Positions 33,905-55,050 of a stretch of DNA of 64,000 nucleotides are shown piece by piece. Position numbers and translations under genes: made by a program. Below the pieces are notes generated by a model. The model did not search any database. It worked only from the letters and a program-made list of their open reading frames with translations, and had not been told where the DNA came from. This DNA comes from a virus, in the IMG/VR virus record IMGVR_UViG_3300044980_000048, positions 2,709 through 66,708 of that record. One strand, written 5' to 3'. Within the stretch, counting starts at the first letter, position 1. Every line of letters starts with the position of its first letter.

Positions 33905-33917
33905 TCATATCCCTACA

Positions 33918-38808: not shown

Positions 38809-39024
38809 TTAATCCTCTTCTGTTTCAGGTTTATAATTACGTTGCGATCTCTTTCGTGCTTCGGCTATACGTTCCTCAAAGAACTTGAGTCCCTTCAGAA
38901 AACCAACTCTTTCGCCATACATATGCGGCTCAAAACAAGAGCCACCCTCAAGCATGTCCCGTTCTGCTTTGCGGCGTTCTTCTACCTCTTCAAAGACCGA
39001 TTCCCACGCTTCCTTGGTAAGCAT
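38809..39024 (-). CDS. Conserved small head-module protein
   Basis: LEGG...YGERVGFLKGL. Confidence 0.65.
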   Translation of the reverse strand: MLTKEAWESVFEEVEERRKAERDMLEGGSCFEPHMYGERVGFLKGLKFFEERIAEARKRSQRNYKPETEED

Positions 39025-39599: not shown

Positions 39600-41805
39600 C
39601 GGAATCTCCAAAATTAGGTGGGTTGAAATGTTGAATCAAGTCACTCGCTCTGTCATGCGCTGCATTGCGAGATTCGGCATCAAGTTTTATGCGTGCAGTT
39701 TCTTCTTTCATCTGCGCGATGCGCTCACGAGACTGCATTTCCGCCGCATCGGCCTGCGTCTGTACTGCAAGTTTTTTCTGTTCAGTTTGCGCCTGCACTA
39801 CCCTGTCAGCGGCTTCGCGCTGCTGCTGCTGTGAATCCTGCTGCAACTCAGCCTGCTTAATCTGCATATTCTGCTGCAATTCCTGCTGCTTTAATTGCGC
39901 CTGCATCTGTGCTGCAATAACGGCAGGATCGGGGGGTGCCTGCTGTGGCGGCGGCTGGTGGATTATCTCTTCAGGATTACTGATGCCGATAGTCTTAAGC
40001 GCGTGCTCATGTACCTTGAACTGGTCATAAAGCATCGGTGCCTGCTGCGCCAAGGTAATCAACGCCGTTGCCTGCATGATGCGGTGCATCTGTGCGGGTA
40101 CGTTTGGATCGCTATTGGGTACGATATTCAGGTTTGTCAATTCAGCAGCCTGCCATTGCCGCGCTTTTGGATTGCTGCGGTAAAGCGGCTCCGGGTCTTG
40201 CATGAATAGCTTTTTCAGTTTCATCAACTCGCGCTTTTGCGACTGATGCAGGCGCTTATGCACAGCAGCCATGGTCTTTGTCTGCTGCTCTATCATGGCC
40301 AGCATAGTGCCAACCGGCACGTTCTGCCTGCCTTCGCCTATCTCAAGATTAACCGCGCCGCCTATCTTTTCCGCCCCTTGCGCTATAATTTCCGCAAGCT
40401 GGATAAATACAGCGCTTGGCTCCTTATACGGCATCGGCATAAATGCCTTGCGTATATCATCCATCGGGCCGGTATCGACTTCAGGCCATTCGCCGGGGCC
40501 GGGATTAATCTCGTTTGTGCTTTGCCGCGTTCCCTTAACCCGCATGCCACCGGGGAAGTTATTAAACATCCCGGCATCCACCAGAATGCGCCAGATGGCC
40601 GTAAGCGCCATGGTCTGATTGCCAAGCAGGTGTAGATACCCAAGGCCAAGATAACCCATACCCGGTACTAGCATGTAATCGACAAACGGGAGGTCTTTCT
40701 TGTATTCCTTATCGTTCTCATCCCAATTGCGGCGTACATCAAGGATTATCTGTGAATCCTTGTCTATCGTAACGCGGTATGGCAGCGGCAGGTCTTCAGG
40801 AGCGCCTTTTTCATCGAATCCATAGTCTTCTGGTACAATCTCGCAGCAGCATTCGTAAACCGTATGCGGTATATCGCGTGGGCGCGGGCCAGTCGAATTG
40901 AGTCCCTGAGTCTGCTTTTCCTTCTGTTTTGTCGGATCGGCAGGTAACGAAGGGGTTGAAAGCTTTACATCCCGCCAGACTTTAGCCAACTGCATGCGGC
41001 GCACCTGAGACTGAGACATCTCAATCTTGTGCGTGACGCGCAATGCATTATCAAGGTCGGTGGCGCTTTCAGAAACAATCAAATCCGTAAGGTAGACGCA
41101 TTCAATTACAGGACGTTTACGGAGCGGGCACTTATAGATTTTCTTAAACAACGTGCCACCATAACCAAGATAAAATGCACCCCTGTCCGTATCCGGATAA
41201 TATTCCGTCGCCGTTGTAGTCAGGTAATGATTGAAATCCTCTTCAAGCTGCTGCGCAAGTTCATCATCCTGTCCTGAAGGACTGCCGCCCTCAACGACGC
41301 CCTTGCAAGGCCCGCTGGCAGGTAACATCTCTCCGACAAAGGAAGACTGAAAATCCACGACAGCAGCCAGTAATACCGGATGCCGTACCGTGGAAACATT
41401 CTTTCTCTGCCTGCGCCCGGAGCGATCCTCCATCTTCAGACCAAGCAGATCAATGCCCTTGTTGTACATCGCAACCATGGCGCTACGGCTGCGAATATCG
41501 GTTTCTATGCCGTCCAGCAAATCAGCGGAAAGTGCGCTTAATTGCTGCGGTGGGATAGCCTTTATAGCAAGGTTATCGTCAAAGCTTGACGGTTCGTTGT
41601 CGTCATTTGCAGCACCAAGGCCCGTGCCGCCTTGGCCGATAATAACATCGCCATTATCAAGCGTCGTAACCGTAGTGCCGTCTTCAGTCTGCACTACATT
41701 AGGTTTTGAATAATCCTCTGGCGCACCCAAGTCTATAGGCTCAACAGAAACCTGCGGCGCATCCTGAAAAACAGGCGCACCTTTCCAGTCGCGGGCGATT
41801 GGCAT
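39577..41805 (-). CDS. Portal protein
   Basis: 742 aa; HPVLLAAVVDFQ, GTLFKKIY, PVGTMLA...AVHKRLH, Q-rich barrel. Confidence 0.9.
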   Translation of the reverse strand: MPIARDWKGAPVFQDAPQVSVEPIDLGAPEDYSKPNVVQTEDGTTVTTLDNGDVIIGQGGTGLGAANDDNEPSSFDDNLAIKAIPPQQLSALSADLLDGIETDIRSRSAMVAMYNKGIDLLGLKMEDRSGRRQRKNVSTVRHPVLLAAVVDFQSSFVGEMLPASGPCKGVVEGGSPSGQDDELAQQLEEDFNHYLTTTATEYYPDTDRGAFYLGYGGTLFKKIYKCPLRKRPVIECVYLTDLIVSESATDLDNALRVTHKIEMSQSQVRRMQLAKVWRDVKLSTPSLPADPTKQKEKQTQGLNSTGPRPRDIPHTVYECCCEIVPEDYGFDEKGAPEDLPLPYRVTIDKDSQIILDVRRNWDENDKEYKKDLPFVDYMLVPGMGYLGLGYLHLLGNQTMALTAIWRILVDAGMFNNFPGGMRVKGTRQSTNEINPGPGEWPEVDTGPMDDIRKAFMPMPYKEPSAVFIQLAEIIAQGAEKIGGAVNLEIGEGRQNVPVGTMLAMIEQQTKTMAAVHKRLHQSQKRELMKLKKLFMQDPEPLYRSNPKARQWQAAELTNLNIVPNSDPNVPAQMHRIMQATALITLAQQAPMLYDQFKVHEHALKTIGISNPEEIIHQPPPQQAPPDPAVIAAQMQAQLKQQELQQNMQIKQAELQQDSQQQQREAADRVVQAQTEQKKLAVQTQADAAEMQSRERIAQMKEETARIKLDAESRNAAHDRASDLIQHFNPPNFGDSDASQRTQ

Positions 41806-41891: not shown

Positions 41892-42386
41892 TCAAGCGGG
41901 TAATTTTACATTCCATCCCGCAATTAAGCACCATTCAAGTAAACCCACTCGCAAAAGTCCAATGATATTGTTATACCGTTCGCTTCGTTCTCCATGCTCT
42001 ATGGCAAGCTCTGCAAAAGTCTTATCGTTGTCACATATAGCCTTACAAACTGAAAATGCTACAGTATGATCTTTAGCCATTAATTCTTGCCATACCCTGA
42101 ATCTTTTTAGAACATCCAACACAAAATCATTGTATTCGCTTGCGCTGATTCCGGGCAATTCCCCATACTTAAATTGACGATAATTAACCAAACCGCCATA
42201 TGACACGCGAATCCCTATAGCTATTTGAATCATTGCATCAATTTCCTGATCGGTAAGCCTCTCCATAAGCCTGTGGACTGACTTGCGCATGAAGAACGCA
42301 CGATATGTCCGTGCCTGAGAAAGTTTCCGTAAGGCAGGGACTACACTATCAACGGGTGAAAACTTCTTTTTGGGGAGTTTTTTCAT
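41892..42386 (-). CDS. Putative late transcription regulator (C-terminal HTH, DUF6456/Q-like)
   Basis: ICDNDKTFAELAIEHG...LLRVGL; between terL and portal. Confidence 0.45.
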   Translation of the reverse strand: MKKLPKKKFSPVDSVVPALRKLSQARTYRAFFMRKSVHRLMERLTDQEIDAMIQIAIGIRVSYGGLVNYRQFKYGELPGISASEYNDFVLDVLKRFRVWQELMAKDHTVAFSVCKAICDNDKTFAELAIEHGERSERYNNIIGLLRVGLLEWCLIAGWNVKLPA

Positions 42387-44011
42387 ACGGGATAAAGCGG
42401 GTCGGGATCGTTTCCGGTGAATATTGAAGATTCCATTTCGGCACGTTGCGTTTCTTCCGGCATAAGCGCAAGACCGAGTTTGCGGAGATACCCAAGGCCC
42501 ATGGTAAGGGCGTCTACCATATCATCGTGTTTTGCCTTGGGAAAGCTACTGCATTGGTTAATGCATGCATCTACCCAACTCCTGTCAGGAGCATAGACGC
42601 AATTCGCTGAGAATAGTGGAACAACGGCATGAGCGCGCGCCGTCTTGCTGGTATCGGCGGGATAGGGGAAAATCTGAAATTCCTGTGGACTGCAAATGCG
42701 TTGCATCTCCTGCAATATACTCTGCCCGCTGGCCTTATCTTCAATGATTGCAACATCCACTTTCCTTCTGCGACAAGTGGCAATCGTTTTTTCCAGCAGG
42801 TCATTAAAAGCAAGACGCTCATTCCATACTTCCACTAGCATGATTTTGCTTAATCCCTGCCTGTTTTTGAATACACCAAGCACTACGCAAGCGGATGGAT
42901 CGTTTTCTTCTTTCTCCTTAAAAGCGGTATCGAACGAAGCCACTACATATTCAAAATCAGGGTAACTCGGCTGCATGGCAACTTTCATCGTGCCATCCTT
43001 GCCGCGCCATTTTACCTGTTTCATCCATATTTCCTCTTCACCTTCAGGGGGCCATAACTGCCACCATTCACGCTTGATGATGCCGCCCCCGCGCGGTGCT
43101 GGAATTTGCTGATATTGGCCAGCATACGCATATGGCCCTTTGATTTTCTGAAGGCCCTTAACAACATCGTAAGAAAATCTTTCTTCCCACGCCAACTCGC
43201 CCTCTTCAGTGCGCGGGTCTTCCCATCCGATGTCTGTAGAGCATTTACGCATCGAATCAAATTCCATCGGAACCATGACATGAACATATCCCGTGCCATA
43301 TTCCAAAAGTGTGTTCGTCGCGTCATCTTCGCTGGTGCGCTGCTGAATATTCACTATTACGCCCGTCTGCATATTATTAAGACGATCAGGCATCGTTTCG
43401 CGTAACCATGTATTTGTTGTCAACATCACGGCTTCTGATTCTGAATCATCCGTTGAATTTGCATCGTCTATCAATATACGGTCTGCACGCTCGCCAGTAC
43501 CCATGCCGCCTATAGAACTGGCTATTTTCCATCCCGTCTTATCGTTTGAAACCTTGATAACGCTTTCCTGTTCCACCTGAAATACATCTCCCCACTTTGC
43601 CTGATAATCGTCATGAAGGATTATTTTAAGAAAACGTCCGTTATCACGTACTGTGAGGCGTTGCGAGTAGGAAAAATTTAAATAACGCAGATGCGGCATC
43701 TTTTGCGGCCCCCATTCCCACGCGGGCCAAAAGACGCATACACAAAGGCTTTTCATAAATCCGGGGGGCACATTAAAAATCACTTTCCTGATAATACCGA
43801 ACGTAATCGCTTCAAGGTGCAAGCATATCGCATCCAATGGCCATCCCCACACTAAAGGCGTTTCAGGTTCAACGATATGCCAATGTTTCTTGATAAATTC
43901 CGCTAATGATTCCTCACATGCCTCTTTTTCACGAACAATCTCCAACCTTTCCTTCAGGGATTGAAGAAGCGCATTATCAGGAAGCGGTTGTAGAATCTGT
44001 TGCTTTGCCAT
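42383..44011 (-). CDS. terL: Terminase large subunit
   Basis: NVPPGFMKS (Walker A), ILIDD (Walker B), YQQIP, SFDTA, IEDKASG, FP..KHDDMVDA. Confidence 0.93.
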   Translation of the reverse strand: MAKQQILQPLPDNALLQSLKERLEIVREKEACEESLAEFIKKHWHIVEPETPLVWGWPLDAICLHLEAITFGIIRKVIFNVPPGFMKSLCVCVFWPAWEWGPQKMPHLRYLNFSYSQRLTVRDNGRFLKIILHDDYQAKWGDVFQVEQESVIKVSNDKTGWKIASSIGGMGTGERADRILIDDANSTDDSESEAVMLTTNTWLRETMPDRLNNMQTGVIVNIQQRTSEDDATNTLLEYGTGYVHVMVPMEFDSMRKCSTDIGWEDPRTEEGELAWEERFSYDVVKGLQKIKGPYAYAGQYQQIPAPRGGGIIKREWWQLWPPEGEEEIWMKQVKWRGKDGTMKVAMQPSYPDFEYVVASFDTAFKEKEENDPSACVVLGVFKNRQGLSKIMLVEVWNERLAFNDLLEKTIATCRRRKVDVAIIEDKASGQSILQEMQRICSPQEFQIFPYPADTSKTARAHAVVPLFSANCVYAPDRSWVDACINQCSSFPKAKHDDMVDALTMGLGYLRKLGLALMPEETQRAEMESSIFTGNDPDPLYPV

Positions 44012-44969
44012 CTTCTTTAATCGTATTCGGCTTTATGTAGAATGTCTTTTCGCCCACATGGCCTAGCTGCGTAGACATATCAAAATCCATCCATATCTTG
44101 AAGCCGGATTTGCGTACAAGCTTACAGAAGGTAATATCCTCTCCAAACGCATCACCATCTGCGTAGTTAGGGGGCTCATAGAAAGCTGGCATACCAATTG
44201 TCTGAAATACAGTAAGCTTGATAAGCTGGCAGCAGGAGCCGATTAAAGCCATTTCCACTAATCCTTGGCCTGCGCTTATTATCTTATGTGTTCCCGTTGA
44301 ATCAGGAGGCGCAACGGCAACACCTATGGGAGTGCCGGTTTCATCGCCGCGTTTGCAGGCCGTTGCTGAGATTATATCAAGATTGTAGGAAAGAAACCTG
44401 TGCAGCAGAAACGAGGGAAACACCATATCGTTATCGAGGAAAAGTATGTGTGTAGCGCCATTCTTCATGGCGTCCTGCACCAAGCGATTACGGTTACTCG
44501 TAATGCGACTGCCCATACAATCGCGGATAATAAACTGGATATTATCTTGCTGTTTTATCGTCAGAAGCATGGCAATAAGGCTTTGCATGAATTCCGCCTT
44601 CATGGAACCGTAATGTGGCAATCCGATATAAACTACGCGCTTGGGCGGCCTTACATCCGGTATCTGCGCATCGGGTATAATTTCCTTGACGCGGGCAAAC
44701 ATCTTCTCAGCTTCATCGTATTGCCCGGTAATACGGTAAATGTTACCCCAATTATACATCGCTCTGTCATGGCGCGGGTCTAGCTCTATCGCTTTCTTAA
44801 AGCACATACCCGCATAGTCCTGATCGCCCTTGGCCATCTTGAGACAGCCCATATAATGCCAACCGTTAGCAAGTTCTGGATTTTCCTCAAGTATAGAAGC
44901 CAGAAGCGAAAAAGCTTCATCGGATTTATTCTCGCGCAGGAGGGATTCTATGAAGGAGAAATCGGTCAC
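43977..44969 (-). CDS. TPR-repeat plus GT-A glycosyltransferase
   Basis: N-terminal TPRs; HILFLDNDM, GEDITFC, LGHVG. Confidence 0.75.
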   Translation of the reverse strand: MTDFSFIESLLRENKSDEAFSLLASILEENPELANGWHYMGCLKMAKGDQDYAGMCFKKAIELDPRHDRAMYNWGNIYRITGQYDEAEKMFARVKEIIPDAQIPDVRPPKRVVYIGLPHYGSMKAEFMQSLIAMLLTIKQQDNIQFIIRDCMGSRITSNRNRLVQDAMKNGATHILFLDNDMVFPSFLLHRFLSYNLDIISATACKRGDETGTPIGVAVAPPDSTGTHKIISAGQGLVEMALIGSCCQLIKLTVFQTIGMPAFYEPPNYADGDAFGEDITFCKLVRKSGFKIWMDFDMSTQLGHVGEKTFYIKPNTIKEDGKATDSTTAS

Positions 44970-45628
44970 AGTTTTAACCTCTCTCTAACACGTTTCAAAT
45001 CTTCTTGGTACTTCGGCCCGTTGATATATGCCTTATATGCCGCACCGTCATCCGTATGCGAAGGCTGCGTTGCGTAGGTAGTATCAAATTCGGCTTTCCC
45101 TACCTGCCAGTGGCGATGCTCAAGCAATACGTCGCTGCAATATCGTGCCAAACCTAATTCAAGAGCGAATGTGCGCCATATCAAGTCAGCGCTGCCCCGT
45201 TTTATGTATGGCGGGCATAGCCATCCCCATGCGCGTACCAGATCGCCGCCAATAAAGGGATGCGTTGCAGCAAACCTGTCCTGATGAATTCCATCATCGC
45301 CCCATGCCACGCAATAGGGAATACAGGCGTCACGCAACCGAACATCCCATTTTTCCGTCATAGGAGCTACATCATCGGCAATCAGCGCATACCACGGCTC
45401 ATTTGGGTTTTCTTCAACCACGCCATTCATTGCCGCCGCTAAATCACGGCATTTTTTATTAATCTTAAAATTCCAAGTAGCAGGAAAATTCCTTATGATT
45501 CTTTCGTAAACAACAAAATTATCCTCGTCGATCACTACGGTAACGGGCAGAGTTGCAGCAGTGACTTCATACGCCTTAATAAAGCGATTCAGGCTATCAG
45601 GACGGCCACGGGTAGGAAGGATAATCAC
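44966..45628 (-). CDS. GT2-like glycosyltransferase
   Basis: ILPTRGRP, ALIADD, LEHRH. Confidence 0.75.
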   Translation of the reverse strand: MIILPTRGRPDSLNRFIKAYEVTAATLPVTVVIDEDNFVVYERIIRNFPATWNFKINKKCRDLAAAMNGVVEENPNEPWYALIADDVAPMTEKWDVRLRDACIPYCVAWGDDGIHQDRFAATHPFIGGDLVRAWGWLCPPYIKRGSADLIWRTFALELGLARYCSDVLLEHRHWQVGKAEFDTTYATQPSHTDDGAAYKAYINGPKYQEDLKRVRERLKL

Positions 45629-46452
45629 AACAGCCCTCTTTCCTGTAAAATATGCTTCTGCGTCACTTTGGAGAATATCTCAAAACCTGCTTCTGCAACA
45701 TTCTGTACACCATCCTGCAACTTCAAGACAGTGTGGCAGGTTTCAACAATATTATCATAATTGCAAAACAGCGCTGCGTTATAGTAAGGCTTCTCAAGTT
45801 CCTTGTCTGCACCATACTCGGAAACCACGCATACCTTATTCGCAAACAGGTGGGAGCAGCGGATAATCTCAAAAATAGCAGCCTGATAGTAGTGAAGGTT
45901 TAGCACCAATTTGCTCTGCGCAATATACTTATCCCGTTCTGCGCCGTACTTTCCAAATAGCGTAAAAATATTAAGTCCGGTTTTCTTCAGGTCATTGAGG
46001 ATTCTTTCACGGCGAATATTGAGCGACCCATAGAAAAGAACGTCTATTTTCTTTTCCTGATCTAACTCTATATTGCCCATGGACGGACAATATCCAATCG
46101 GCACGTACTTGGCCTCAATGCCAAATCCTTTGAGTCTTTGCACGTTTAAATGCGAGTAATCCCATACTTCATGCTCGCGGAGCATCTGAAGGTAATGATT
46201 CGTCATCCAAGCGTTGCCGGTGAGCGTATCAATTTGCTCGGTCTGATAGATAACGGCATCGGCAGGTAGTTTTATAATCTCTCCATCAGTCAAATGTGCG
46301 CCGAAGACAAGCGGCGCACTGTAATGTGTCTTCGGATCAATCGCCATGGGAACGTTAAGTGCGTAATAAAAACCTGTAGCAACTTCCCTGAAAGCCTCGC
46401 TATGGATATATCCTTCAGGCTTAACAAGCCATACAGATTTCACCGTGCTCAT
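45625..46452 (-). CDS. GT-B type glycosyltransferase
   Basis: IDVLFYGSLNIRR, SKLVLNLH, FEIIR, VVSE. Confidence 0.7.
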   Translation of the reverse strand: MSTVKSVWLVKPEGYIHSEAFREVATGFYYALNVPMAIDPKTHYSAPLVFGAHLTDGEIIKLPADAVIYQTEQIDTLTGNAWMTNHYLQMLREHEVWDYSHLNVQRLKGFGIEAKYVPIGYCPSMGNIELDQEKKIDVLFYGSLNIRRERILNDLKKTGLNIFTLFGKYGAERDKYIAQSKLVLNLHYYQAAIFEIIRCSHLFANKVCVVSEYGADKELEKPYYNAALFCNYDNIVETCHTVLKLQDGVQNVAEAGFEIFSKVTQKHILQERGLL

Positions 46453-47432
46453 TGATACGCCTCATCATTGAAGGCGATATACCTATTCTTCGCGGCATCA
46501 CGGTTAGCGCCATACCAAGCAATCGTGTCGCGTATGCCGTCTTCAAGGCCCACCCGCGCATGAAATCCATAGCCCGCAGCCTTGGTCATATCCATCACGC
46601 GCTGATTATCGCCTCCCGGCATCGTCTGATCCCATACTATCTCACGCGGCCCACCGGGAGCATGTTTGGCTACAAGCTCTGCTACATCGGCAATCGTCAC
46701 GGGATTGCCGCTGCCTAAGTTTATAGGTTCATGAATACCTTTCTCAACGGCAAGCATCGTCCCCGCTGCAACGTCTTCTGCATGGATGAAATCACGGTAT
46801 GCCGCACCGCTTCCCCAGACCGTCAAAGGCCCATCGTTCTCCACTACGCGGGCAATTAGAGAGGGCAATACCATAGCCGTTTCCGAGTCAAAGTTATCCC
46901 ATGGCCCATACACATTGGCTGGCCTCACAATAGATGTCCTGAAGCCAAACTCTTCTGCATAGGCAGCCGCCTGCAATTCTCCCATCCGCTTCGCCCATCC
47001 CGCATACCAGTCATTAGGCGACGGAAAGCCATCCCACATATCGCCCTCATGAAAGACTTCCGCAGGCGGATAGACCCCTACGGTGCTGGTATAAAGATAA
47101 TGCTTCACCTTGGCGCGTCTGGCCGCCTCCATCATGTTGATGGAAGTCTGTAATATCGGAGTGAAAAACCTCGCCGGATATTTCTTTGTGGCAGAAGGCG
47201 AACCCTTAACGCCTACAAGGTTAAATACAATATCCTTGCCTTGGCATGCGCTCTCGCAATTCGAGAATTCCCTTAAGTCGCACCTGTGGTTGCCATCCAT
47301 GGAGGCATTGTAAACAATAGCATCACGCCTGCGCAGCATTTCTACCAGCGGACGGCCTATAAGGCCGGTGCCGCCTGCTACCAATACTTTCTTGCCCTCA
47401 TAGAAGTTTTTCACGCGAAATTTTCCCGTCAT
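46449..47432 (-). CDS. NDP-sugar epimerase/reductase (GDP-fucose synthase-like SDR)
   Basis: GGTGLIG, YAGWAK, RPANVYGP, RDFIH. Confidence 0.85.
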   Translation of the reverse strand: MTGKFRVKNFYEGKKVLVAGGTGLIGRPLVEMLRRRDAIVYNASMDGNHRCDLREFSNCESACQGKDIVFNLVGVKGSPSATKKYPARFFTPILQTSINMMEAARRAKVKHYLYTSTVGVYPPAEVFHEGDMWDGFPSPNDWYAGWAKRMGELQAAAYAEEFGFRTSIVRPANVYGPWDNFDSETAMVLPSLIARVVENDGPLTVWGSGAAYRDFIHAEDVAAGTMLAVEKGIHEPINLGSGNPVTIADVAELVAKHAPGGPREIVWDQTMPGGDNQRVMDMTKAAGYGFHARVGLEDGIRDTIAWYGANRDAAKNRYIAFNDEAYQ

Positions 47433-48364
47433 TTATTTTCCTGAAACCACTTCCACGTTTTATGGATGCCCTGTTCCAGCATCGTTATCGGATGCCAGCC
47501 AATCTGTTCCTGCGCATAGGAACAGTCCAGCGACACACTCATGTCAATCGTTGGCTTACTTGTATCGTAGGTTATATTGATTTTCTTTCCCGATGCCTCA
47601 ATTATCTTGGCCACAAGTTCATTGATCGGCGTTGCCGTTCCACTGCCGCAGTTGAATAATTCATAGGAATTTTTCTGCCGTTCTATGGCGCACTGGACGA
47701 ATGAAACCAAGTCGTCAATGTAAAGTAAATCCCGCGCCTCGGTGCCGTTGCCCCATACAATAATATCCTTATCGGCCTGCGCAACCTTCGTCATCGTAGC
47801 GCCAAACACATGCGTGCGCTCAAGATCAAATTTATCGTAAGGCCCGTAAAAGTTACTTCCGCGTATCACGGTAAACTTTGTTTCGCCAAGGCCAGCGTAA
47901 AAGGCGCACATTTTTTCATTGTACAGCTTGGTATTCACCATCCCAAAATAGCGCGGATGCGGGAAGACTTCCGCCATCTCGTTTACATGGCCACCGCTGT
48001 ACATCGTCGAGCAACTGAAATAAACGACCTGCTTAACCTTATGCTCGAATGCCGAACGGAATATATAGGCATTCATCACCGCGTTATCCGTCACGTGAAT
48101 CCAAGGCTTGCCAAACGTGTCCTGACAGCCCGACGTTACCGCCGCAGCCTGAATGACAATATCCTTGTCCTGCATAACGGCATCGACATTCTCAGGATCG
48201 CACAAATCCGCATGCAACCATTTTACGTTAATATGCCTCCATGGAAGCTTTTCATGAACCACACACGTAACATCATAGCCGGGATGTTCAGCGAGTCGCT
48301 TTGCAATATTGCGTCCAAGGAAACCCGTTGCGCCTAATACCAAAACCTTCTGTTTCATAGCCAA
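47429..48364 (-). CDS. NDP-sugar epimerase/reductase (SDR)
   Basis: GATGFLG, NFYGPYDKFD, RDLLY. Confidence 0.85.
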   Translation of the reverse strand: MAMKQKVLVLGATGFLGRNIAKRLAEHPGYDVTCVVHEKLPWRHINVKWLHADLCDPENVDAVMQDKDIVIQAAAVTSGCQDTFGKPWIHVTDNAVMNAYIFRSAFEHKVKQVVYFSCSTMYSGGHVNEMAEVFPHPRYFGMVNTKLYNEKMCAFYAGLGETKFTVIRGSNFYGPYDKFDLERTHVFGATMTKVAQADKDIIVWGNGTEARDLLYIDDLVSFVQCAIERQKNSYELFNCGSGTATPINELVAKIIEASGKKINITYDTSKPTIDMSVSLDCSYAQEQIGWHPITMLEQGIHKTWKWFQENK

Positions 48365-49182
48365 CCTATTTCCTTTGCTGCATCCTGAAAATAACCGGGA
48401 AAGAATTTCTTTGGGTCAATGCGCTCTGTGACGGTGCCGCGATTAAATAGATCAGCGCCGGTCTTCAGGCATTCAGCGATGTGATCGGGAGATTTGAATT
48501 CATCGCTGTTTAACTCCTGATGCGAAAAATTCTCCACCTTGTTCCTGATTGCCTTCTCGCCGCCCATATAACTAAGATGCCAGCCGCCATCCGGCACAAA
48601 ACCGCACATATTACGCCTATTACGCATCTCCTGCGCCCCTGTCAGCAAGGCCATCCGCACGGTAGTCAGTATCGTTCCGTGCCAATGCTCATGCCGCAGG
48701 TTCGTCAAGTCGTAATAGAAAAACGCCTGCCTGCATGCCACGATAGCATCCGCCGTAATCCATTCCGTTGCCCACTCTATCGCCTTGCGCGAAGGGAATT
48801 CGTCCACATCCCCCATCATGAACGTATCTTCCTGCTTGATGCCAAGTTCCAATATATCCTTGCGCGGTGCAGTCAGAATATCGGTAAGGGAATTGCGTTG
48901 AGTCTTCTCCACGTGCCACCAGACGGAATTAGGATCAAACTGCTTGGGCTTCTCGGAAAAGTCCAGATGCGATACATCTATCCGGACTGGATGATGGATA
49001 ATCTTATGCTTCCACGGCGCAAAGCGTTCGCGGTTGTCCCAATAATGAAACGGCTTATCCTTGCCGCTAAAAGTCTTATCAGCTTCGCAAATGATAAACT
49101 TATCGACATAGGGGGAAAGAAGACGAAGACGAAACTCTAGTATGTCCAATTCCGAGTCAAACAACACCGCATCCAAAAGCAT
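48355..49182 (-). CDS. GT17-like glycosyltransferase
   Basis: ELDILEFRL, EADKTFSG, QRN, GDVDEFP, GGWHLSY, NFSHQE. Confidence 0.8.
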   Translation of the reverse strand: MLLDAVLFDSELDILEFRLRLLSPYVDKFIICEADKTFSGKDKPFHYWDNRERFAPWKHKIIHHPVRIDVSHLDFSEKPKQFDPNSVWWHVEKTQRNSLTDILTAPRKDILELGIKQEDTFMMGDVDEFPSRKAIEWATEWITADAIVACRQAFFYYDLTNLRHEHWHGTILTTVRMALLTGAQEMRNRRNMCGFVPDGGWHLSYMGGEKAIRNKVENFSHQELNSDEFKSPDHIAECLKTGADLFNRGTVTERIDPKKFFPGYFQDAAKEIGWL

Positions 49183-49427
49183 TACAACGTCCTTACGATA
49201 AGATAGTTTTGATAACTAAGAGGCCAGACACGATATTGGCTATCCACCATCGTCGGGACTCCATGGCAATTCTTCAACAAATCATCCGCCAGCAGCTTAT
49301 CAATTATAAAATCATCAACATGCGTCAGCGGATGCGCGGTGCAATTCGGGCCAATTGCATATACTCGCGGAAATAAAAACGCGGGGGAAAAATCTTTTAC
49401 TTTAGGGGGATTTTCTTCTGAAGACAT
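49182..49427 (-). CDS. Hypothetical protein
   Basis: 81 aa; start codon lies inside a GCGCU hairpin. Confidence 0.45.
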   Translation of the reverse strand: MSSEENPPKVKDFSPAFLFPRVYAIGPNCTAHPLTHVDDFIIDKLLADDLLKNCHGVPTMVDSQYRVWPLSYQNYLIVRTL

Positions 49428-49444
49428 CGGAGCGCCCGGTGTTT
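49422..49444 (-). promoter_or_regulatory. GCGCU-pentaloop hairpin overlapping a start codon
   Basis: ACA-C-CGG[GCGCT]CCG-A-TGT on the - strand. Confidence 0.55.
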
Positions 49445-49462
49445 GAGTTGCAGTATATTAAT

Positions 49463-50674
49463 CTAAGTCGTCTGAAATTTCAACATGAATTCATCAAAGC
49501 AGTCTCCGACATACTCACAATCATCGCGCGACACGCCCTGATGACAGCCTATGGCAAAGCCTCTGTCCATGATCGTGTTGCTGTTTTCGAGGCTGCCTGA
49601 AACGCGATGCTCATACATTTTCATGGCCGGTTGCCGCGCCATATTACCCGCGATGATAGGCCGCGTCTCTATGCCTTTCGCGTTCAGGAACCTTACAATC
49701 TCTGCCCGCGTGAACGGCGTATCCTTAAGTATGATCCCGAATCCAAACCAACTGCTTAATCCAAAGATTTGCTGTTGCTGCAATATAAAATAATCCGAAT
49801 ACCTCTCAAGGCGGTTTCTATAGGCATGCGTCACATTACATCTATCCTGTACAAAGCCATACAGCTTCGGTAACTGTACCATGCCCATTGCGGCCTGTAT
49901 CTCGGTTGGCCGCAGGTTATAGCCGATATTCACAAACAGGAAGCGCGGATCGATGTTCGGATACAAGTCTGCATATTTCTGGCTATTATCCGCCTCGCGT
50001 GACCAGCCGTGCGCCCTGAGTATCCGCATCAAATCGGCAAACTCTGCGTTATCCGTCAGGCACAGACCCCCTTCAAACGTGGTAATGTGATGCGAGTAGT
50101 ACAGGCTCATGGTGCCGACAATACCAAAACTGCCGGTATATTTATTATCTATGCCCGCACCCATAGACTCGCAGGAATCCTCAATAACATATAAGCCATG
50201 CTTCCCGGCCACCTGCATTATACCGTCATGGAAACTACCATTCATGTGGCACGGATTGCCGTACACATGCACCAGCATGATAGCCTTGGTTTTATCGGTG
50301 ATCGCCGCTTCAATCGCCTGCGGCGTGACGTTGAATGTGTTTATATCGCAGTCCACAAACACCGGCACAAGGCCGTGCTGTATCAGCGGCCATACGCTCG
50401 TTGCCCATGACAGCGCGGGCACAATCACTTCATCTCCGGGTTTCAGCCTGTCATTCCACGCGGGATTACTGAGCGCGGCAACCGCAAGCAGGTTAGCCGA
50501 CGATCCGGAGTTACACATCACGCAATGCCTGACGCCGAAATACTCTGCGCACATTTGCTCGAACCTGCGCACCTGCCTGCCCATGGTGACATCGCCGGTA
50601 CGCATCTGCGCTACCATGGCGGAGATTTCCTCTTCGCCAAAGGTGGGAGCGTGAAGTTTTACACTGCGTTCCAT
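49463..50674 (-). CDS. PLP-dependent NDP-4-keto-6-deoxysugar 3-dehydratase (ColD-like)
   Basis: DegT fold; SLYYSHHITTFEGG has His where aminotransferases have the Schiff-base Lys. Confidence 0.85.
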   Translation of the reverse strand: MERSVKLHAPTFGEEEISAMVAQMRTGDVTMGRQVRRFEQMCAEYFGVRHCVMCNSGSSANLLAVAALSNPAWNDRLKPGDEVIVPALSWATSVWPLIQHGLVPVFVDCDINTFNVTPQAIEAAITDKTKAIMLVHVYGNPCHMNGSFHDGIMQVAGKHGLYVIEDSCESMGAGIDNKYTGSFGIVGTMSLYYSHHITTFEGGLCLTDNAEFADLMRILRAHGWSREADNSQKYADLYPNIDPRFLFVNIGYNLRPTEIQAAMGMVQLPKLYGFVQDRCNVTHAYRNRLERYSDYFILQQQQIFGLSSWFGFGIILKDTPFTRAEIVRFLNAKGIETRPIIAGNMARQPAMKMYEHRVSGSLENSNTIMDRGFAIGCHQGVSRDDCEYVGDCFDEFMLKFQTT

Positions 50675-50835
50675 TGTCTCTCCAATTGTTCCAATCGTCT
50701 CTGCATCGGCGCTATCCCCAGAATCTCCCGCGCCTGAATATCGCTGCAAGGCGCATATCCTTCTATCTTCACGATGCCCGGATGAACGCGGGTTACGATA
50801 TATCCGTTCACGGTATGTTTTACCTCGTCAGGCAT
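50659..50835 (-). CDS. 58-aa hypothetical protein (below track cutoff)
   Basis: MPDEVKHTVNGY...; bridges the gmd-like and colD-like genes. Confidence 0.4.
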   Translation of the reverse strand: MPDEVKHTVNGYIVTRVHPGIVKIEGYAPCSDIQAREILGIAPMQRRLEQLERQWNAV

Positions 50836-51863
50836 GGCGTCCTCTTCACCTTATCGCGCCAGTATTGTAATAAATCCTGCATGGTAGTCTCAAAGGGTAT
50901 CTCTGGTTTCCAGCCGCTATGATTACGAAACTTACTGGTATCGAATTTTTGCAAGTCCGCATCAATAGGCCGCAAGCGTTCCGGGTCTATCTCAACATAT
51001 ATCTCGCTACCATCTCCGGGCCCCTGAAATTTATTGCGGGTTTTGCGCTCTGAAAGCGACAATAAATAACCAAGCATATGCCCGACGCTGCGATATTCAT
51101 CGCCTGCAATATTGTAATATTCCCCGGCAACAGGATTGATTGTTACCAGCATATGATATGCCCGTACCGCATCCCGTACATCGGCATAGGTGCGCAGAGA
51201 ATCTACATTACCAACTTTCACCACTGAAGGTATCTGACCCGCTTCAATCATCGCTATCTGCTTGGCAAACGATGACTCCGCGAATACATCGCCGCGCCTT
51301 GGGCCGGTATGAGTTCCCATCCGCGTCACCATCACGCACATGCTGTAAGCTTCCGCGTAGTGCCGCGCAATCAATTCCGTTCCCACCTTTGAAATCGCAT
51401 ACGGGCTGGATGGGTGAAAACTACACTCTTCGTCAATCGGCAGCTTCTCTTCAGGCACTCGGCCAAACACTTCCGACGACCCGCATACATGAATCACGGC
51501 GCTACATGCATCCGCCTTGCACGCCTCAAGCACCCTGTGCGTGCCTTGTACGTTCGTCTCGTAGGTATCAAGCGCCGCCGTGAACGATGTTTTCGGATAC
51601 GACTGCGCCGCCAGATGAAACACGTAATCGGGAGCCGCTTCACGCACTGCCGCGTTTATCGAATCGGAATCCCGCAAGTCGCCGTACAGCAGCTTCACCC
51701 TCCCGCCTTTATTTACTTCCGGCAGAAGATGTGCTATGTTATCCAGAGGCGAACGCCATCTGATTAATCCGTAAATATCCCAATCGGTGTGCCCAAGCAG
51801 GTAATCCGCAAGATGCGACCCCACCATTCCCGATATGCCCGTAATGAAGCAGCGCGCTTTCAT
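50820..51863 (-). CDS. gmd: GDP-mannose/GDP-manno-heptose 4,6-dehydratase
   Basis: GISGMVG, HLAAQS, SSEVFG, PYAISK, KQIAMIEAG. Confidence 0.88.
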   Translation of the reverse strand: MKARCFITGISGMVGSHLADYLLGHTDWDIYGLIRWRSPLDNIAHLLPEVNKGGRVKLLYGDLRDSDSINAAVREAAPDYVFHLAAQSYPKTSFTAALDTYETNVQGTHRVLEACKADACSAVIHVCGSSEVFGRVPEEKLPIDEECSFHPSSPYAISKVGTELIARHYAEAYSMCVMVTRMGTHTGPRRGDVFAESSFAKQIAMIEAGQIPSVVKVGNVDSLRTYADVRDAVRAYHMLVTINPVAGEYYNIAGDEYRSVGHMLGYLLSLSERKTRNKFQGPGDGSEIYVEIDPERLRPIDADLQKFDTSKFRNHSGWKPEIPFETTMQDLLQYWRDKVKRTPCLTR

Positions 51864-51865
51864 TC

Positions 51866-51875
51866 TCAACTAATA
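51866..51875 (+). repeat. Left 10-bp inverted repeat TCAACTAATA
   Basis: Exact reverse complement of 54374..54383. Confidence 0.7.
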
Positions 51876-51877
51876 AC

Positions 51878-52852
51878 ATGATACTCTCCAAGACGCCATA
51901 CCGTATTTCCTTCTTCGGCGGCGGCTCGGACTTCCGCGAGTTCTATGAACAACACGGCGGCAAGGTGCTATCGGCCACGATCAACCACTACTGCCGCATC
52001 ATGGTGCGCAGGCTACCCCCGTTCTTTACCGAGAAGTCCCGCGTCATCTGGTCGCAGATAGAAAACGTATCCGACATCTGCTACATCACCCACCCTGCGG
52101 CACGGGCCATCCTTTATCACATGGCCGAAGACCGTATCGAAATCATCCACTCAGGCGACCTGCCAGCCCGTTCAGGACTAGGCTCAAGCTCGGCCTTCAC
52201 GGTGGGGCTACTCAATGCCATGCATGCACTCAGGATGCCCCACTATGCCTTGCCCGACCTTAACGGACTGTCACTTGCTCCCAAGCATCTCGCCACCGAA
52301 GCAATCTGCATCGAACGCGACATCCTGCGCGAAAACGTAGGCATCCAAGACCAGATTGCCTGCACATACGGGGGCTTCAACAAGACCACCATCCATACGG
52401 ACGGGGCATTTACGCTTGACCCCCTGAAGCCCGACAAGGCGCTGCAAGACCACCTGCTGCTGTTCTTCACCGGCATCACGCGCAACTCTTCCGATATTGC
52501 CGCCCAGCAGATAAAGGAAATCCACACCAAGACCGCCGACCTGAAGCATCTCATGTCGCTTGTCGATACCGCACTCGCCTCTCCCCTTGAAGACTTCGGC
52601 AGACTCCTGCATGAAAGCTGGCTCATCAAGCGCAAACTGTCGCCGTCAATCACTACGGATTTTATCGACGGCATATACACGAAGGCTCTCAATGCCGGTG
52701 CAGAGGGAGGTAAGCTGCTCGGTGCCGGTGGGGGTGGGTTCATGCTGTTCTTCGCCAAGCCTGAGTATCATAAACATATCATAAAATCGTTAGGACTGCT
52801 GCACGTCCCGTTTCAATTCGAGAGCAAGGGTTCACACATATGTCACGCATAG
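51878..52852 (+). CDS. hddA: GHMP sugar kinase, D-glycero-D-manno-heptose-7-phosphate kinase-like
   Basis: TPYRISFFGGGSD, DLPARSGLGSSS, GIQDQ, GKLLGAGGGG. Confidence 0.85.
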   Translation: MILSKTPYRISFFGGGSDFREFYEQHGGKVLSATINHYCRIMVRRLPPFFTEKSRVIWSQIENVSDICYITHPAARAILYHMAEDRIEIIHSGDLPARSGLGSSSAFTVGLLNAMHALRMPHYALPDLNGLSLAPKHLATEAICIERDILRENVGIQDQIACTYGGFNKTTIHTDGAFTLDPLKPDKALQDHLLLFFTGITRNSSDIAAQQIKEIHTKTADLKHLMSLVDTALASPLEDFGRLLHESWLIKRKLSPSITTDFIDGIYTKALNAGAEGGKLLGAGGGGFMLFFAKPEYHKHIIKSLGLLHVPFQFESKGSHICHA

Positions 52853-53256
52853 TATGCTGTAGCGGTGGGTTCGATCCGCTCACTTCAGGCCACATAGACT
52901 ACATCGAAGACGCCGCCAACTACGGCAGGGTTATCGTCATTCTTAATTCAGATGAGTGGCTCATACGAAAGAAGGGCTACCTGTTCATGCCTTGGCCGCA
53001 GCGGGCAAAGATACTATGCGCCCTTCGCGCAGTATATGGGGTAATCTCGGTAGATGACTCAGACGGCTCTGTATCTTCCGCGCTACGCCACAGCGGCGCG
53101 TCATACTTCGCCAACGGCGGCGACCGCACGGCAGATAATACGTTAGAGTTAGACGTATGCCGCGAACTTGGCATTACACCGTTGTTTAACATCGGCGGGG
53201 GAAAAACGGCCTCAAGCAGCGAACTGGTGAGGGCGGCATGCAGGCAGATGAACTGA
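52840..53256 (+). CDS. Cytidylyltransferase-like nucleotidyltransferase
   Basis: SGGFDPLTSGH, LNSD, FANGGDR, KTASSS. Confidence 0.85.
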   Translation: MSRIVCCSGGFDPLTSGHIDYIEDAANYGRVIVILNSDEWLIRKKGYLFMPWPQRAKILCALRAVYGVISVDDSDGSVSSALRHSGASYFANGGDRTADNTLELDVCRELGITPLFNIGGGKTASSSELVRAACRQMN

Positions 53257-53831
53257 TAGCTTTCGAGCGTGACATAGCCAGCCTGTACAACGCGGGTGCC
53301 ATACGCGCCCCCATCCACCTGTCGTCCGGTAATGAGCAGCAGTTGATTGAAGCGTTCAAAGGCTTCAAACAAAACGACTGGTGCTACTGTACATGGCGTT
53401 CCCATCTGCATGCCCTGCTGGCCGGTGTACCCGCAGCCAAGGTCAAGGCCGCTATCATGGCAGGCAGGTCTATGACGCTCTGCTTTCCGGAGCATCGGTT
53501 CTTTTCATCAGCCATCGTCGCCGGGTGTTGCCCTATCGCGGTGGGTACGGCATGGCAGATCAGGCAGCGGGGCGGGAAAGAGCGCGTGTTTTGCTTCCTT
53601 GGCGACATGGCTGCATTGACAGGACTTGCCTTTGAATGCGGCAACTATGCCAAGTGGCATGACCTGCCGATAACATGGGTAGTGGAAGACAACGGCATGA
53701 GTGTATGTACCGATACGCTTGACGCATGGGGCTGCAAAGAACCACGGCAACAGACGCAGGCCATCGCTACAGGATACAACTACGTTTTGGGCTATCCTCA
53801 CTCAGGCGCGGGCAGGCGCGTGAATTTTTGA
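53238..53831 (+). CDS. TPP-dependent enzyme, E1 alpha-like (minimal)
   Basis: PIHLSSG, TWRSH, SAIVAG, LGDM...EDNG TPP motif. Confidence 0.85.
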   Translation: MQADELIAFERDIASLYNAGAIRAPIHLSSGNEQQLIEAFKGFKQNDWCYCTWRSHLHALLAGVPAAKVKAAIMAGRSMTLCFPEHRFFSSAIVAGCCPIAVGTAWQIRQRGGKERVFCFLGDMAALTGLAFECGNYAKWHDLPITWVVEDNGMSVCTDTLDAWGCKEPRQQTQAIATGYNYVLGYPHSGAGRRVNF

Positions 53832-54355
53832 CAGGAAACTCCGCATATTCTGACAACCTCTGCAAGGCTATGGCTTTATTCGCCTCACAGCCTAACGCCG
53901 TAGTGGTGGGGCAGGCCGTGGCATGTCCGGGTACTGCTATGTTCAACACGCTCCGTGACGTTCCCATGTCGCAGCGCCTTGAGTTTCCGGTCGCGGAAAT
54001 CTTCCAGCTTGGCTTCTGCACCGGCATCGCATTGTCTGGTGGACTGCCGTTGTGCATCTTCCCCCGTATCAACTTCATGCTTGAGGCCATCAGCCAGCTT
54101 GTGCAGCATCTGGACAAGATACCGCTATTCAGCGACTACCGGCCTAAAGTGCTGATTCGCACCGCCATCGCAACCCCGATACCGCTAGACGCAGGCCCGC
54201 AGCATCTTGGCGATTACACGGATGCGGTGAAGGCGATGCTGTCAACAGTGCGGGTTGTGAGACTAACAACAGCGGAAAGCGTGCTTCCGGCCTATCAGGA
54301 AGCCATAAACTGTGCTGATTCTGTGATTCTGGTTGAGGACATGGGTTTATATTGA
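53828..54355 (+). CDS. TPP-dependent enzyme, E1 beta-like (pyrimidine-binding domain only)
   Basis: VGQAV, EFPVAE..QLG...GIAL, GPQH; probable TTG start overlapping the alpha stop. Confidence 0.8.
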   Translation: MTGNSAYSDNLCKAMALFASQPNAVVVGQAVACPGTAMFNTLRDVPMSQRLEFPVAEIFQLGFCTGIALSGGLPLCIFPRINFMLEAISQLVQHLDKIPLFSDYRPKVLIRTAIATPIPLDAGPQHLGDYTDAVKAMLSTVRVVRLTTAESVLPAYQEAINCADSVILVEDMGLY

Positions 54356-54554: not shown

Positions 54555-55013
54555 CTAACCACCGCTCTCAACAAACCCTATAAGAGCCTCTAGCTCCCTG
54601 CTGCCCATTTTCTCAATCCCCTTTTGCAGCATTGAGCGCTTATCGTTTATCTCGGCCATTATCGCCTGACGCTGAATGCTCTTCCCCTGCTTTCTATCCA
54701 ACCACTCCCGTATGGCGTTTAAAACGGCCTTATCGTCATCGCTGGTAAGCGCCATGATAGCCAGAGCGTCTAGCATAGCCTGAGCCTGTTCTTCCTCGCT
54801 CATGGCAAGCACACGCAGTTTATCCGGGTTTATGCGCTCAAGTAACGTTCTGAGTTCTGCACGTGGCATTTCTTCGAGGCGAGATAGAAGGGAAGCGTCG
54901 ATGGACGCGGGGTTGGTTGCGCTTTGTGCCGTAGCTTGGCTATTAGAGCCAGTTTCACGCTTGTTTGTCTTAGGCAGCGGATCGCCGGTCAATGGGTCAA
55001 ATTCATCGCTCAT
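54555..55013 (-). CDS. Terminase small subunit-like protein
   Basis: Helical; AIREWLDRKQGKSIQ; first gene of the late unit. Confidence 0.6.
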   Translation of the reverse strand: MSDEFDPLTGDPLPKTNKRETGSNSQATAQSATNPASIDASLLSRLEEMPRAELRTLLERINPDKLRVLAMSEEEQAQAMLDALAIMALTSDDDKAVLNAIREWLDRKQGKSIQRQAIMAEINDKRSMLQKGIEKMGSRELEALIGFVESGG

Positions 55014-55050
55014 AAGCGGGATTATAGCATAATAATGCCATTTATCAATG

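Follow-up and report, generated by a model that had tools for sequence, protein, structure and literature searches.

Why would a tailed phage carry, directly ahead of its terminase gene, a set of genes for making and transferring an unusual sugar? The question is raised by a stretch of viral DNA, hereafter the window, that comprises 64,000 of the 66,708 bases of the linear IMG/VR record IMGVR_UViG_3300044980_000048. At positions 43977-54355, between terL and an open reading frame (ORF) labelled terS in an earlier note on this DNA, lies a cassette that the note had read as a pathway to a branched, yersiniose-like dideoxy sugar destined for the virion. Our analysis indicates that the cassette plausibly encodes a variant form of a sugar-branching chemistry that is already known, here in an unusual carrier. 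The reading that we prefer, tentatively, is that an accessory module builds a branched deoxy-heptose and that its glycosyltransferases put the resulting glycan on a cytoplasmic acceptor, for which a virion protein is the leading guess.

An accessory cassette ahead of terL

The region is filled by 13 ORFs, of which A to I occupy the minus strand (43977-51869) and J to M the plus strand (51878-54355). Family searches recovered the gene content that the earlier note had listed, namely a kinase, a nucleotidyltransferase, dehydratases, a thiamine diphosphate (ThDP)-dependent E1 pair, short-chain dehydrogenases/reductases (SDRs) and glycosyltransferases. The predicted products, together with that of terL, are as follows.

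42383-44011, minus strand: terL, 542 residues (Terminase_6C, 3.1e-12; TIGR01630, 53.1 bits, above the cut-off)
43977-44969, minus strand: A, GT-A glycosyltransferase fused to tetratricopeptide repeats (TPRs), 330 residues, three TPRs and then the GT-A domain (TPR Pfam matches)
44966-45628, minus strand: B, small glycosyltransferase-like protein, 220 residues (phrog_14945 'glycosyltransferase', 8.3e-31)
45625-46452, minus strand: C, compact GT-B (GT4-like) glycosyltransferase, 275 residues (no Pfam match)
46449-47432, minus strand: D, Fcl-like extended SDR with an atypical active site, 327 residues (Epimerase Pfam, 4.5e-44)
47429-48364, minus strand: E, Fcl-like extended SDR with an atypical active site, 311 residues (Epimerase Pfam, 2.2e-42)
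48355-49182, minus strand: F, GT17-family glycosyltransferase, 275 residues (Glyco_transf_17, 1.5e-29, 103.6 bits against a cut-off of 26)
49182-49427, minus strand: G, 81-residue ORF between F and H
49463-50749, minus strand: H, ColD-type pyridoxal phosphate (PLP)-dependent sugar 3-dehydratase, 428 residues (DegT Pfam, 1.6e-89)
50820-51869, minus strand: I, heptose-type nucleoside diphosphate (NDP)-sugar 4,6-dehydratase, 349 residues (an SDR with a GDP_Man_Dehyd Pfam match; ATG at 51863 as an alternative start)
51878-52852, plus strand: J, HddA-like GHMP sugar kinase, 324 residues (GHMP Pfam domains)
52840-53256, plus strand: K, small nucleotidyltransferase of the cytidylyltransferase fold, 138 residues (CTP_transf_like, 4.6e-8)
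53238-53831, plus strand: L, minimal ThDP E1 alpha subunit, 197 residues, PP domain only (E1_dh, 7.1e-15, positions 5-182 of 300)
53726-54355, plus strand: M, minimal ThDP E1 beta subunit, Pyr domain only, ~170-209 residues (the start may lie downstream of 53726)

The cassette spans ~10.4 kb, and the stop region of gene A overlaps the start of terL by 35 nt. Genes A to I have the same orientation as terL, the portal and the head genes. MW202675, the nearest phage record, has terS immediately before terL, and a relative in IMG/VR (L007), whose capsid protein is 52% identical, has no cassette gene within 10 kb upstream of terL. On the basis of these two arrangements, the cassette is an accessory insert ahead of terL. 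Within it, the J-K-L-M block has a G+C content of 55-56%, as against 43-53% for the other cassette genes. The start codons of I and J face each other on opposite strands only 14 nt apart (51863-51878), which leaves no room for conventional divergent promoters. This suggests that J-K-L-M is a separately acquired, inverted module. The late-operon position previously claimed for the cassette applies to A to I, which lie on the late strand with an overlap of A and terL, and is not evident for J to M on the opposite strand.

Putative enzymes for a 3,6-dideoxy-4-keto-heptose

The best PDB match of I is the Campylobacter GDP-D-glycero-D-manno-heptose 4,6-dehydratase 7us5 (1.9e-96, 326.5 bits), whereas GDP-mannose dehydratases score ~138 bits. 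The comparison between these two enzyme types, which had been put forward as a check, came out on the heptose side, and I is predicted to be a heptose-type 4,6-dehydratase.

Its partner H scores 290.8 bits against ColD 2gms (1.4e-85) and 274 bits against 3bcx (1.4e-80), the CDP-sugar 3-dehydrase that is also called E1 but is distinct from the ThDP E1 subunits L and M; its score against the RfbH equivalog is 354.8, with a cut-off of 423. The Cys-rich insertion of the dehydrase E1/DdhC binds an iron-sulfur (Fe-S) cluster, and in the alignment this insertion of 3bcx falls into gaps of H. His220 of H (SHHITT) stands in the ColD His188 column, which is changed in the H188N and H188K mutant entries (3b8x, 2r0t). 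No E3-type reductase was found among the Pfam matches of the cassette. Because the histidine occupies the lysine position and the Cys-rich loop is missing, H is, as the earlier note had assumed, of the ColD type rather than of the E1/DdhC Fe-S type. H thus shares the His position and the missing Fe-S loop with ColD (2gms, 3gr9), the GDP-4-keto-6-deoxy-D-mannose 3-dehydratase of colitose synthesis. It differs from ColD in that the partner dehydratase points to a heptose as the probable substrate of H, and in that it is nearly as close to the dehydrase E1.

An equivalent pair of steps has been described in Campylobacter, where GDP-heptose is converted to GDP-3,6-dideoxy-4-keto-heptose by a 4,6-dehydratase and a PLP-dependent C3-dehydratase, followed by a C5-epimerase and a C4-reductase (PMC10440746). 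According to the description of the Campylobacter jejuni HS:5 and HS:11 pathways (Ghosh, Xiang, Raushel 2023; PMC10440746), they share with the cassette a heptose 4,6-dehydratase followed by a PLP C3-dehydratase; the cassette also has an HddA-like kinase. The phage contig differs in that it has no cupin C5-epimerase (dTDP_sugar_isom), GmhA, GmhB or HddC, contains a nucleotidyltransferase of another fold and an added E1 pair, and is not a capsule locus.

For the entry of heptose, the best NCBIfam model of J is HddA (121.9 bits against a cut-off of 600), and its best PDB matches are HddA-type heptose kinases, with 3k85, 4usk and 4n3o as solved relatives. K has a weak likeness to the ADP-heptose branch, matching rfaE domain II with 42 bits (cut-off 181), and no PDB match. 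It belongs to a very large and well conserved family of ~135-residue enzymes; homologues number at least 2092, and identity is 56-74% among the best 120. The contig contains no match to PF00483 (HddC-type NTP_transferase), and the fold of K differs from that of HddC; GDP is therefore not secure as the nucleotide. The start of a GDP-manno-heptose route proposed in the earlier note may apply in that J is nearest to HddA, although far under the cut-off, and is in doubt with regard to GDP. Searches of the whole 66.7-kb contig for GmhA (SIS_2) and GmhB (TIGR00213) were empty while the controls were positive, in agreement with the previous remark that neither gene is visible.

The two SDRs are the least typical of these enzymes. 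For D, NCBIfam and the PDB both give GDP-L-fucose synthase as the top match, under the curated cut-off, and for E the top PDB match is GDP-fucose synthetase. In D, the Tyr lies one residue early relative to E. coli Fcl, and the equivalents of Cys109 and His179 are missing. In E, the His179 equivalent is retained and the Tyr-Lys spacing is 7 instead of 4. The Fcl residue numbers were confirmed by counting in the aligned E. coli sequence. The description of D and E as two SDR reductases stands for the family, both being Fcl-like members of the Epimerase family, and not for the canonical YxxxK spacing, which neither has. A canonical ColC/Fcl epimerase-reductase was considered for D and for E and finds no support in the active-site alignment with E. 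coli Fcl. In a second phage lineage (L003), the D-like protein has Phe in place of the Tyr, and all four phage SDRs are without a Cys109 equivalent.

A minimal E1 pair with a His-type dehydratase as neighbour

L and M are reduced to the PP and the Pyr domain, respectively. M reaches 26.5 bits with Transket_pyr, just below the 27-bit cut-off, and the only solved relatives found for the pair are the human pyruvate dehydrogenase (PDH) and branched-chain keto acid dehydrogenase (BCKDH) E1 components, at 1.6e-5 and weaker. Relatives of E1 alpha and of A in viral contigs were found with alignment-based scans; a scan with the single A protein returned nothing and one with the single B protein one locus. 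In the E1 alpha loci, Glu150 and Asn152 of L are kept in 80/80 viral and 9/9 other loci, and Asp123 is D or E in all of them. Likewise, Glu91 of M, which aligns with the Glu of human E1 beta, is kept in 79/79 viral and 9/9 other loci. The pair therefore appears to be cofactor-competent though stripped-down. No E2 (2-oxoacid_dh family) was found in the contig.

Short E1 alpha proteins are common. Cluster representatives number 1943 at E<=0.001, and the stricter limits of 1e-10 and 1e-30 leave 431 and 91, respectively. Most have a length of ~200 residues, and a profile scan of IMG/VR gave at least 525 stretches with confirmed E1 alpha relatives among the 600 examined. Longer members include an alpha-beta fusion (P0148), a fusion to an APH-type kinase (P0128) and proteins with intein or LAGLIDADG inserts (P0014, P0045). 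The viral neighbour counts that follow cover the best 80 of the at least 525 loci, many of which lie on short contigs. E1 beta adjoins E1 alpha in 79 of the 80, and a DegT-family enzyme is present in 59. An HddA-like kinase occurs in 32, an I-like dehydratase in 22, an E-like SDR in 18 and a D-like SDR in 17, while B-like and K-like transferases are found in 10 and 7, respectively. Homologues of A, C or F occur in 0/80. The DegT neighbour has His at position 220 in 57/57 viral loci whose alignment covers it, and in 6/6 further loci, of which five are bacterial and one is L003.

The same genes keep company outside this phage. Among bacterial species-representative genomes, seven loci contain close E1 alpha homologues (43-54% identity), from Verrucomicrobia, SAR116, Pelagibacteraceae, a gammaproteobacterial metagenome-assembled genome (MAG) and an unclassified MAG; an HddA-like kinase and E1 beta adjoin E1 alpha in all seven. 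In the Pelagibacteraceae locus L034, the gene order is a GT4 initiating transferase, GmhA, E1 alpha, E1 beta, the kinase and DegT, followed by a B12 radical SAM protein, an RmlC-like epimerase, an SDR, an NTP_transferase-HAD fusion (an HddC-like nucleotidyltransferase joined to a HAD phosphatase domain) and a GT2 transferase. This order ties the E1 pair to a heptose and to a 3-deoxy-4-keto intermediate. Among viruses, the second phage lineage (L003/L004) combines the E1 pair with D-like and E-like SDRs, a methyltransferase, a PfkB kinase with a cytidylyltransferase, a 4,6-dehydratase and a His-type DegT enzyme. The cultured cyanophages P-TIM68 and S-SM2 carry a fused E1 alpha-beta. In Prochlorococcus phage P-TIM68 (L276, 167767-172261), the fusion is annotated 'transketolase central region-containing protein' and lies away from the head genes in a block with a carbohydrate kinase, sugar epimerases, a heptose-type nucleotidyltransferase, a phosphoheptose isomerase and glycosyltransferases. 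A literature search of limited scope returned no paper on this E1 pair in phages or in heptose pathways.

As a separate observation, the B12-binding radical SAM gene of the Pelagibacteraceae locus directly follows the His-type DegT gene (L034:13313-14869), and the phage cassette contains none.

A proposed route to a branched deoxy-heptose

In the reading that we prefer, GmhA and GmhB of the host would provide heptose phosphate, J and K would make an NDP-heptose, and I and H would turn this into an NDP-3,6-dideoxy-4-keto-heptose, as in the Campylobacter capsule pathways. L and M would then branch the keto carbon with two carbons taken from pyruvate, in the manner of the alphaKADH2 antibiotic-sugar enzymes, and D and E would reduce or epimerise the branched product. 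Finally, F, C, B and A would assemble a short glycan on a cytoplasmic acceptor. The virion proteins of the phage itself, expressed late alongside its packaging and head genes, would be this acceptor, and the TPR domain of A would be the protein-recognition part.

The steps of this route differ in strength. Heptose entry, 4,6-dehydration, ColD-type 3-deoxygenation and a ThDP-dependent step at the 4-keto sugar are well supported as far as sequence goes, and two-carbon branching by L and M may follow by analogy with known pairs. The alphaKADH2 E1 alpha/beta pairs of antibiotic pathways, among them those for aldgamycin, avilamycin, paulomycin and kibdelomycin, are described as using pyruvate to place a C2 branch on C3 or C4 of a deoxy-keto sugar, and ~120 gene clusters with such pairs are reported, in passages that mention neither phages nor heptoses (PMC12247030; PMC4753412). 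L and M resemble AviB1/AviB2, Pau11/Pau12 and KbDH-alpha/beta in being a stand-alone E1 pair without E2 or E3, in the deoxy-keto-sugar setting that is proposed here and in the intact ThDP residues. In contrast to these pairs, the phage subunits are cut down to the PP and Pyr domains and lie in a heptose context, and their carriers are phages and surface-glycan loci of uncultured bacteria instead of secondary-metabolite clusters. The tie of the E1 pair to a His-type DegT enzyme strengthens the analogy. A second precedent is provided by the yersiniose-type sugars of lipopolysaccharide (LPS), which are described as being branched by the single-chain YerE (PMC12247030; PMC4753412). The yersiniose route, in which CDP-3,6-dideoxy-4-keto-glucose is joined with pyruvate, would share with the cassette the logic of 4,6-dehydration, 3-deoxygenation and ThDP-dependent branching at C4. 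YerE, as described, is a single ThDP-dependent flavoprotein of the decarboxylase superfamily, whereas the phage has a two-subunit E1 together with a ColD-type enzyme. The 3-dehydratase of the yersiniose route is of the E1/E3 Fe-S type. Of the C4-branched dideoxy-heptose or hexose that the earlier note had considered, the dideoxy-heptose part is backed by the identities of I and H, and the C2 branch by analogy together with the coupling of E1 to DegT.

The carrier phage

Three genes outside the cassette bear on the nature of the carrier and on the acceptor.

6862-7554, plus strand: C5 cytosine DNA methyltransferase, 230 residues (Pfam positions 1-114 of 324; phrog_363, 9e-38)
7484-8353, minus strand: tyrosine integrase (phrog_1, 2.1e-39)
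39577-41805, minus strand: SU10-type portal, with head and tail genes after it, all on the minus strand

The integrase stands among tailed-phage genes, and the carrier is therefore read as a temperate tailed phage. A primase and a YqaJ exonuclease are also encoded on the contig, and the host is probably Gram-negative. With 41% identity for the nearest terL match among 50,697 phage records and 38% among IMG/VR contigs, the phage seems to be without a close cultured relative. The integrase gene is masked by an overlapping plus-strand ORF (7508-8320), itself without matches, and adjoins the cytosine methyltransferase gene.

The glycosyltransferases and the acceptor of the glycan

The count of four glycosyltransferases in the earlier note was borne out on different kinds of evidence: F by its GT17 Pfam match, C by a GT-B model, A by its TPRs and the DxD motif of a GT-A domain, and B by a PHROG match and annotated phage homologues only. 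In A, phrog_1574 covers residues 110-310 and the DxD (D179, D181) is invariant in 14 homologues; the model has a pLDDT of 83, and its fold matches are GT-A enzymes and the TPRs of SPY/OGT. C has 775 homologues, some with PF13524, and its model (pLDDT 95.2) gives ManT, BshA, SenB, SdgB, WaaG and PimA as top Foldseek matches. Homologues of F occur in 7 phage records, mostly of cyanophages, and homologues of B are annotated as glycosyltransferase in 71 phage records, of which 63 are Streptomyces phages. B also has a weak match to phrog_2675. G, the small ORF next to F, has no match in Pfam, NCBIfam or PHROG and no homologue in the 80 viral E1 alpha loci. Guessing the acceptor from the fold matches of A and C was tried and dropped, the matches being generic GT-A and GT-B enzymes.

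The acceptor is the weakest step of the proposal, and we rank a virion protein first, a host glycan second and DNA third. For a virion protein speak the late strand of A to I with the overlap into terL, the TPR domain of A, and the neighbourhood of A. Viral relatives of the catalytic domain of A number 212, and the best 80 of their loci include 26 in which a homologue of the 709-residue virion structural protein of this phage follows on the same strand, 1-7.5 kb downstream of the A relative. Among the 28 loci whose downstream sequence reaches at least 6 kb, 22 show this arrangement. No transmembrane segment was predicted in any cassette protein. A hydropathy scan of the window gave one 98-residue frame with two hydrophobic segments and none with more, and hence no multi-pass protein. 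Among 46 proteins examined, only the major capsid protein (34869-35777, minus strand, ending in GSTPSS) and A have five Ser/Thr in the last 10 residues; the L007 capsid protein (L007:19143-20051, 52% identical) ends in ASTPSS. Glycosyltransferases in or beside late and structural genes are also a feature of the mycobacteriophage virion glycosylation cassettes, reportedly described by Freeman et al. in 2023, and the capsid tail of the phage studied here is likewise Ser/Thr-rich. Those cassettes are said to contain transferases and no full bespoke nucleotide-sugar pathway.

Several structural proteins of the phage contain 23-28% Ser+Thr. This observation had been used to favour virion glycosylation; the composition itself was seen again, and the argument drawn from it is weak. 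We rejected Ser/Thr-richness as evidence of glycosylation, as the homologue in L007, where no cassette gene is seen within 10 kb upstream of terL, also has 21% Ser+Thr. Downstream of the capsid gene, at 33251-34853 on the minus strand, two adjacent Ser/Thr-rich proteins of 217 and 311 residues (25-27% Ser+Thr) have a common internal motif and look like paralogues, and the larger is 50% identical to its L007 homologue.

A number of observations weigh against the reading that we prefer. Regarding the chemistry, J, I, H, D and E all score below their NCBIfam equivalog cut-offs, so these assignments are at family level. K is not HddC-like, and its anomer and nucleotide logic fits a GDP pathway uncleanly. 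D and E have neither the canonical YxxxK spacing nor the Fcl epimerase Cys, and L and M are far shorter than PDH-type E1 subunits. Regarding transcription, the opposite strand, the distinct G+C content and the 14-nt gap of J-K-L-M mean that a simple late-operon co-transcription of the whole cassette is not evident. Regarding the acceptor, the fold matches of A and C include protein-, lipid-, small-molecule- and wall-polymer-directed enzymes, and the 26 loci that place A relatives near the virion protein may be close kin of each other. The STPSS tail is kept in L007, which is without the cassette within 10 kb upstream of terL, and so is the Ser/Thr-richness of its homologous protein. The phage has an integrase, and the bacterial homologues of the cassette lie in surface-glycan loci. 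Finally, the estimated completeness of the contig is 47% (CheckV), which makes absences from it provisional.

The most specific form of the proposal is that the phage makes a nine-carbon C-branched 3,6-dideoxy-heptose, with the minimal E1 pair as the key enzyme, and that A, guided by its TPRs, and the three other transferases O-glycosylate the Ser/Thr tail of the capsid protein, giving a glycan coat on the virion. We regard this full combination as quite unlikely.

Alternatives to virion glycosylation by a branched heptose

The alternative that survives best retains the same sugar chemistry. Here, the transferases would feed the lipid-linked assembly of a host glycan (LPS, capsule or similar), and the changed cell surface of lysogens or infected cells would block superinfection. 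The tyrosine integrase fits such a role, as does the bacterial module, which stands beside a GT4 initiating transferase, a GT2 transferase and GmhA. The fused E1 of P-TIM68 is found in a sugar block away from the head genes, and among isolate phages, K and F have their nearest matches in cyanophages. The window itself, however, contains no flippase, polymerase, initiating transferase or multi-pass membrane protein. Gtr-type and Wzx/Wzy-dependent seroconversion systems employ a membrane transferase, flippase or polymerase, of which the hydropathy scan gave none in the window. The cassette also overlaps terL on the late strand instead of forming a separately oriented moron, and, as we infer, a TPR-fused transferase would be unexpected for a lipid-linked acceptor. 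Taken together, a host glycan as the acceptor is rather unlikely.

A different kind of alternative bears on the chemistry, whatever the acceptor. The E1 pair may act earlier or differently, without branching an NDP-4-keto sugar: as a DXS- or transketolase-like enzyme on a sugar phosphate, which J would then phosphorylate and K activate, as a decarboxylase or as a cleavage enzyme. In bacteria, J has the closest linkage to E1 alpha of all the genes, adjoining it in 7/7 loci, and J, K, L and M form a strand block of their own with a distinct G+C content. E1 alpha also gives weak Pfam matches to 1-deoxy-D-xylulose 5-phosphate (DXP) synthase, and L and M are without further domains of PDH-type E1. 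These points are set against the His-type 3-dehydratase that accompanies the pair in 57/57 viral and 6/6 other loci, which argues for a 3-deoxy-4-keto substrate. In addition, the stand-alone E1 pairs known from sugar pathways are described as branching enzymes (PMC12247030), and L034 has the full set of GDP-heptose genes beside the E1 pair, where the carbon skeleton would already be supplied. We consider this alternative unlikely.

The last alternative is that the bases of the phage DNA receive the sugar, or else a simpler heptose produced by J and K, as a hypermodification against host nucleases. In a phage route reported in a preprint, a HAD/APH-like bifunctional enzyme, a cytidylyltransferase and a GT-B transferase are described as placing one or two heptoses on 5-hydroxymethylcytosine (5hmC), and the clusters for this can lie near structural genes (10.1101/2023.12.21.572611). 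A kinase, a cytidylyltransferase and a glycosyltransferase are thus common to these clusters and the cassette, and a C5 cytosine methyltransferase is present in the phage. B gives a weak match to a PHROG with the name DNA methyltransferase, over positions 1-235 of that profile, and the E1 alpha homologue P0128 is fused to an APH-type kinase. In two Streptomyces phage records, a B-like transferase, a second glycosyltransferase and a nucleotidyltransferase stand amid genes for DnaE, RecA, DnaQ, a dNMP kinase and ThyX. Along with the integrase and the heptosylated phage DNA, this leaves the preference for virion glycosylation over DNA modification expressed in the earlier note not established. 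On the other hand, no TET/5mYOX (PF12851), ThyA-like (PF00303) or 2-oxoglutarate (2OG)-oxygenase (PF13640) match was found in the contig, which may be incomplete (the TET control was positive in none of the control genomes), and the methyltransferase lies 36 kb from the cassette, not adjacent to it. The deoxygenation and ThDP enzymes of the cassette are not part of the hypermodification clusters as described in that report. The Streptomyces phage enzymes share only 29-32% identity with part of K, and the fold matches listed for C do not include T4 beta-GT. DNA is therefore a very unlikely acceptor in our assessment.

The trio of a glycosyltransferase, a B-like glycosyltransferase and a small nucleotidyltransferase was noticed in the ~130-kb Streptomyces phages Daubenski (L194) and MeganTheeKilla (L195), and its setting hints at DNA glycosylation in those phages.

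Implications of the proposed chemistry

C-branching chemistry has so far been associated with antibiotic pathways and, with a different enzyme, with yersiniose-type LPS sugars. The E1 pair discussed here is annotated at best as 'transketolase'. If the preferred reading is true, a common phage and bacterial E1 pair would represent a new compact class of sugar C-branching catalyst that works on heptoses, phages could carry a complete route to a bespoke rare sugar, and the nine-carbon C-branched 3,6-dideoxy-heptose would be a sugar not yet described. The destination of the sugar (virions, host surfaces or DNA) could be approached at the bench with the cultured cyanophages P-TIM68 and S-SM2.

Other features of the window

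The following features lie upstream of the cassette or elsewhere in the window.

39024-39611, minus strand: ORF downstream of the portal, 195 residues, with a long Pro/Met/Ala/Gly-rich low-complexity stretch and no family match
54555-55013, minus strand: N, 152-residue ORF with the earlier label terS
55021-55048, minus strand: best sigma-70-like promoter match of the region (TTGATA, 16 nt, TATAAT, with TG; 11/12), just upstream of N
63408-63998, plus strand: ORF off the end of the window, with DUF7666 (4.1e-31) and collagen-like repeats

We did not adopt the label terS for N. It has no match in Pfam, NCBIfam or PHROG, pairwise comparisons with the annotated terS of three phages with related terL gave no similarity, and the sole hint toward terS is a structural match in the Atlas that stays below the threshold (TM 0.40). 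As for the promoter match upstream of N, the number of promoter-like sites in the region is not above that in shuffled sequences (30 versus 24.0, sd 4.5), and the match itself, at 11 of 12 positions, is the best that the region contains.

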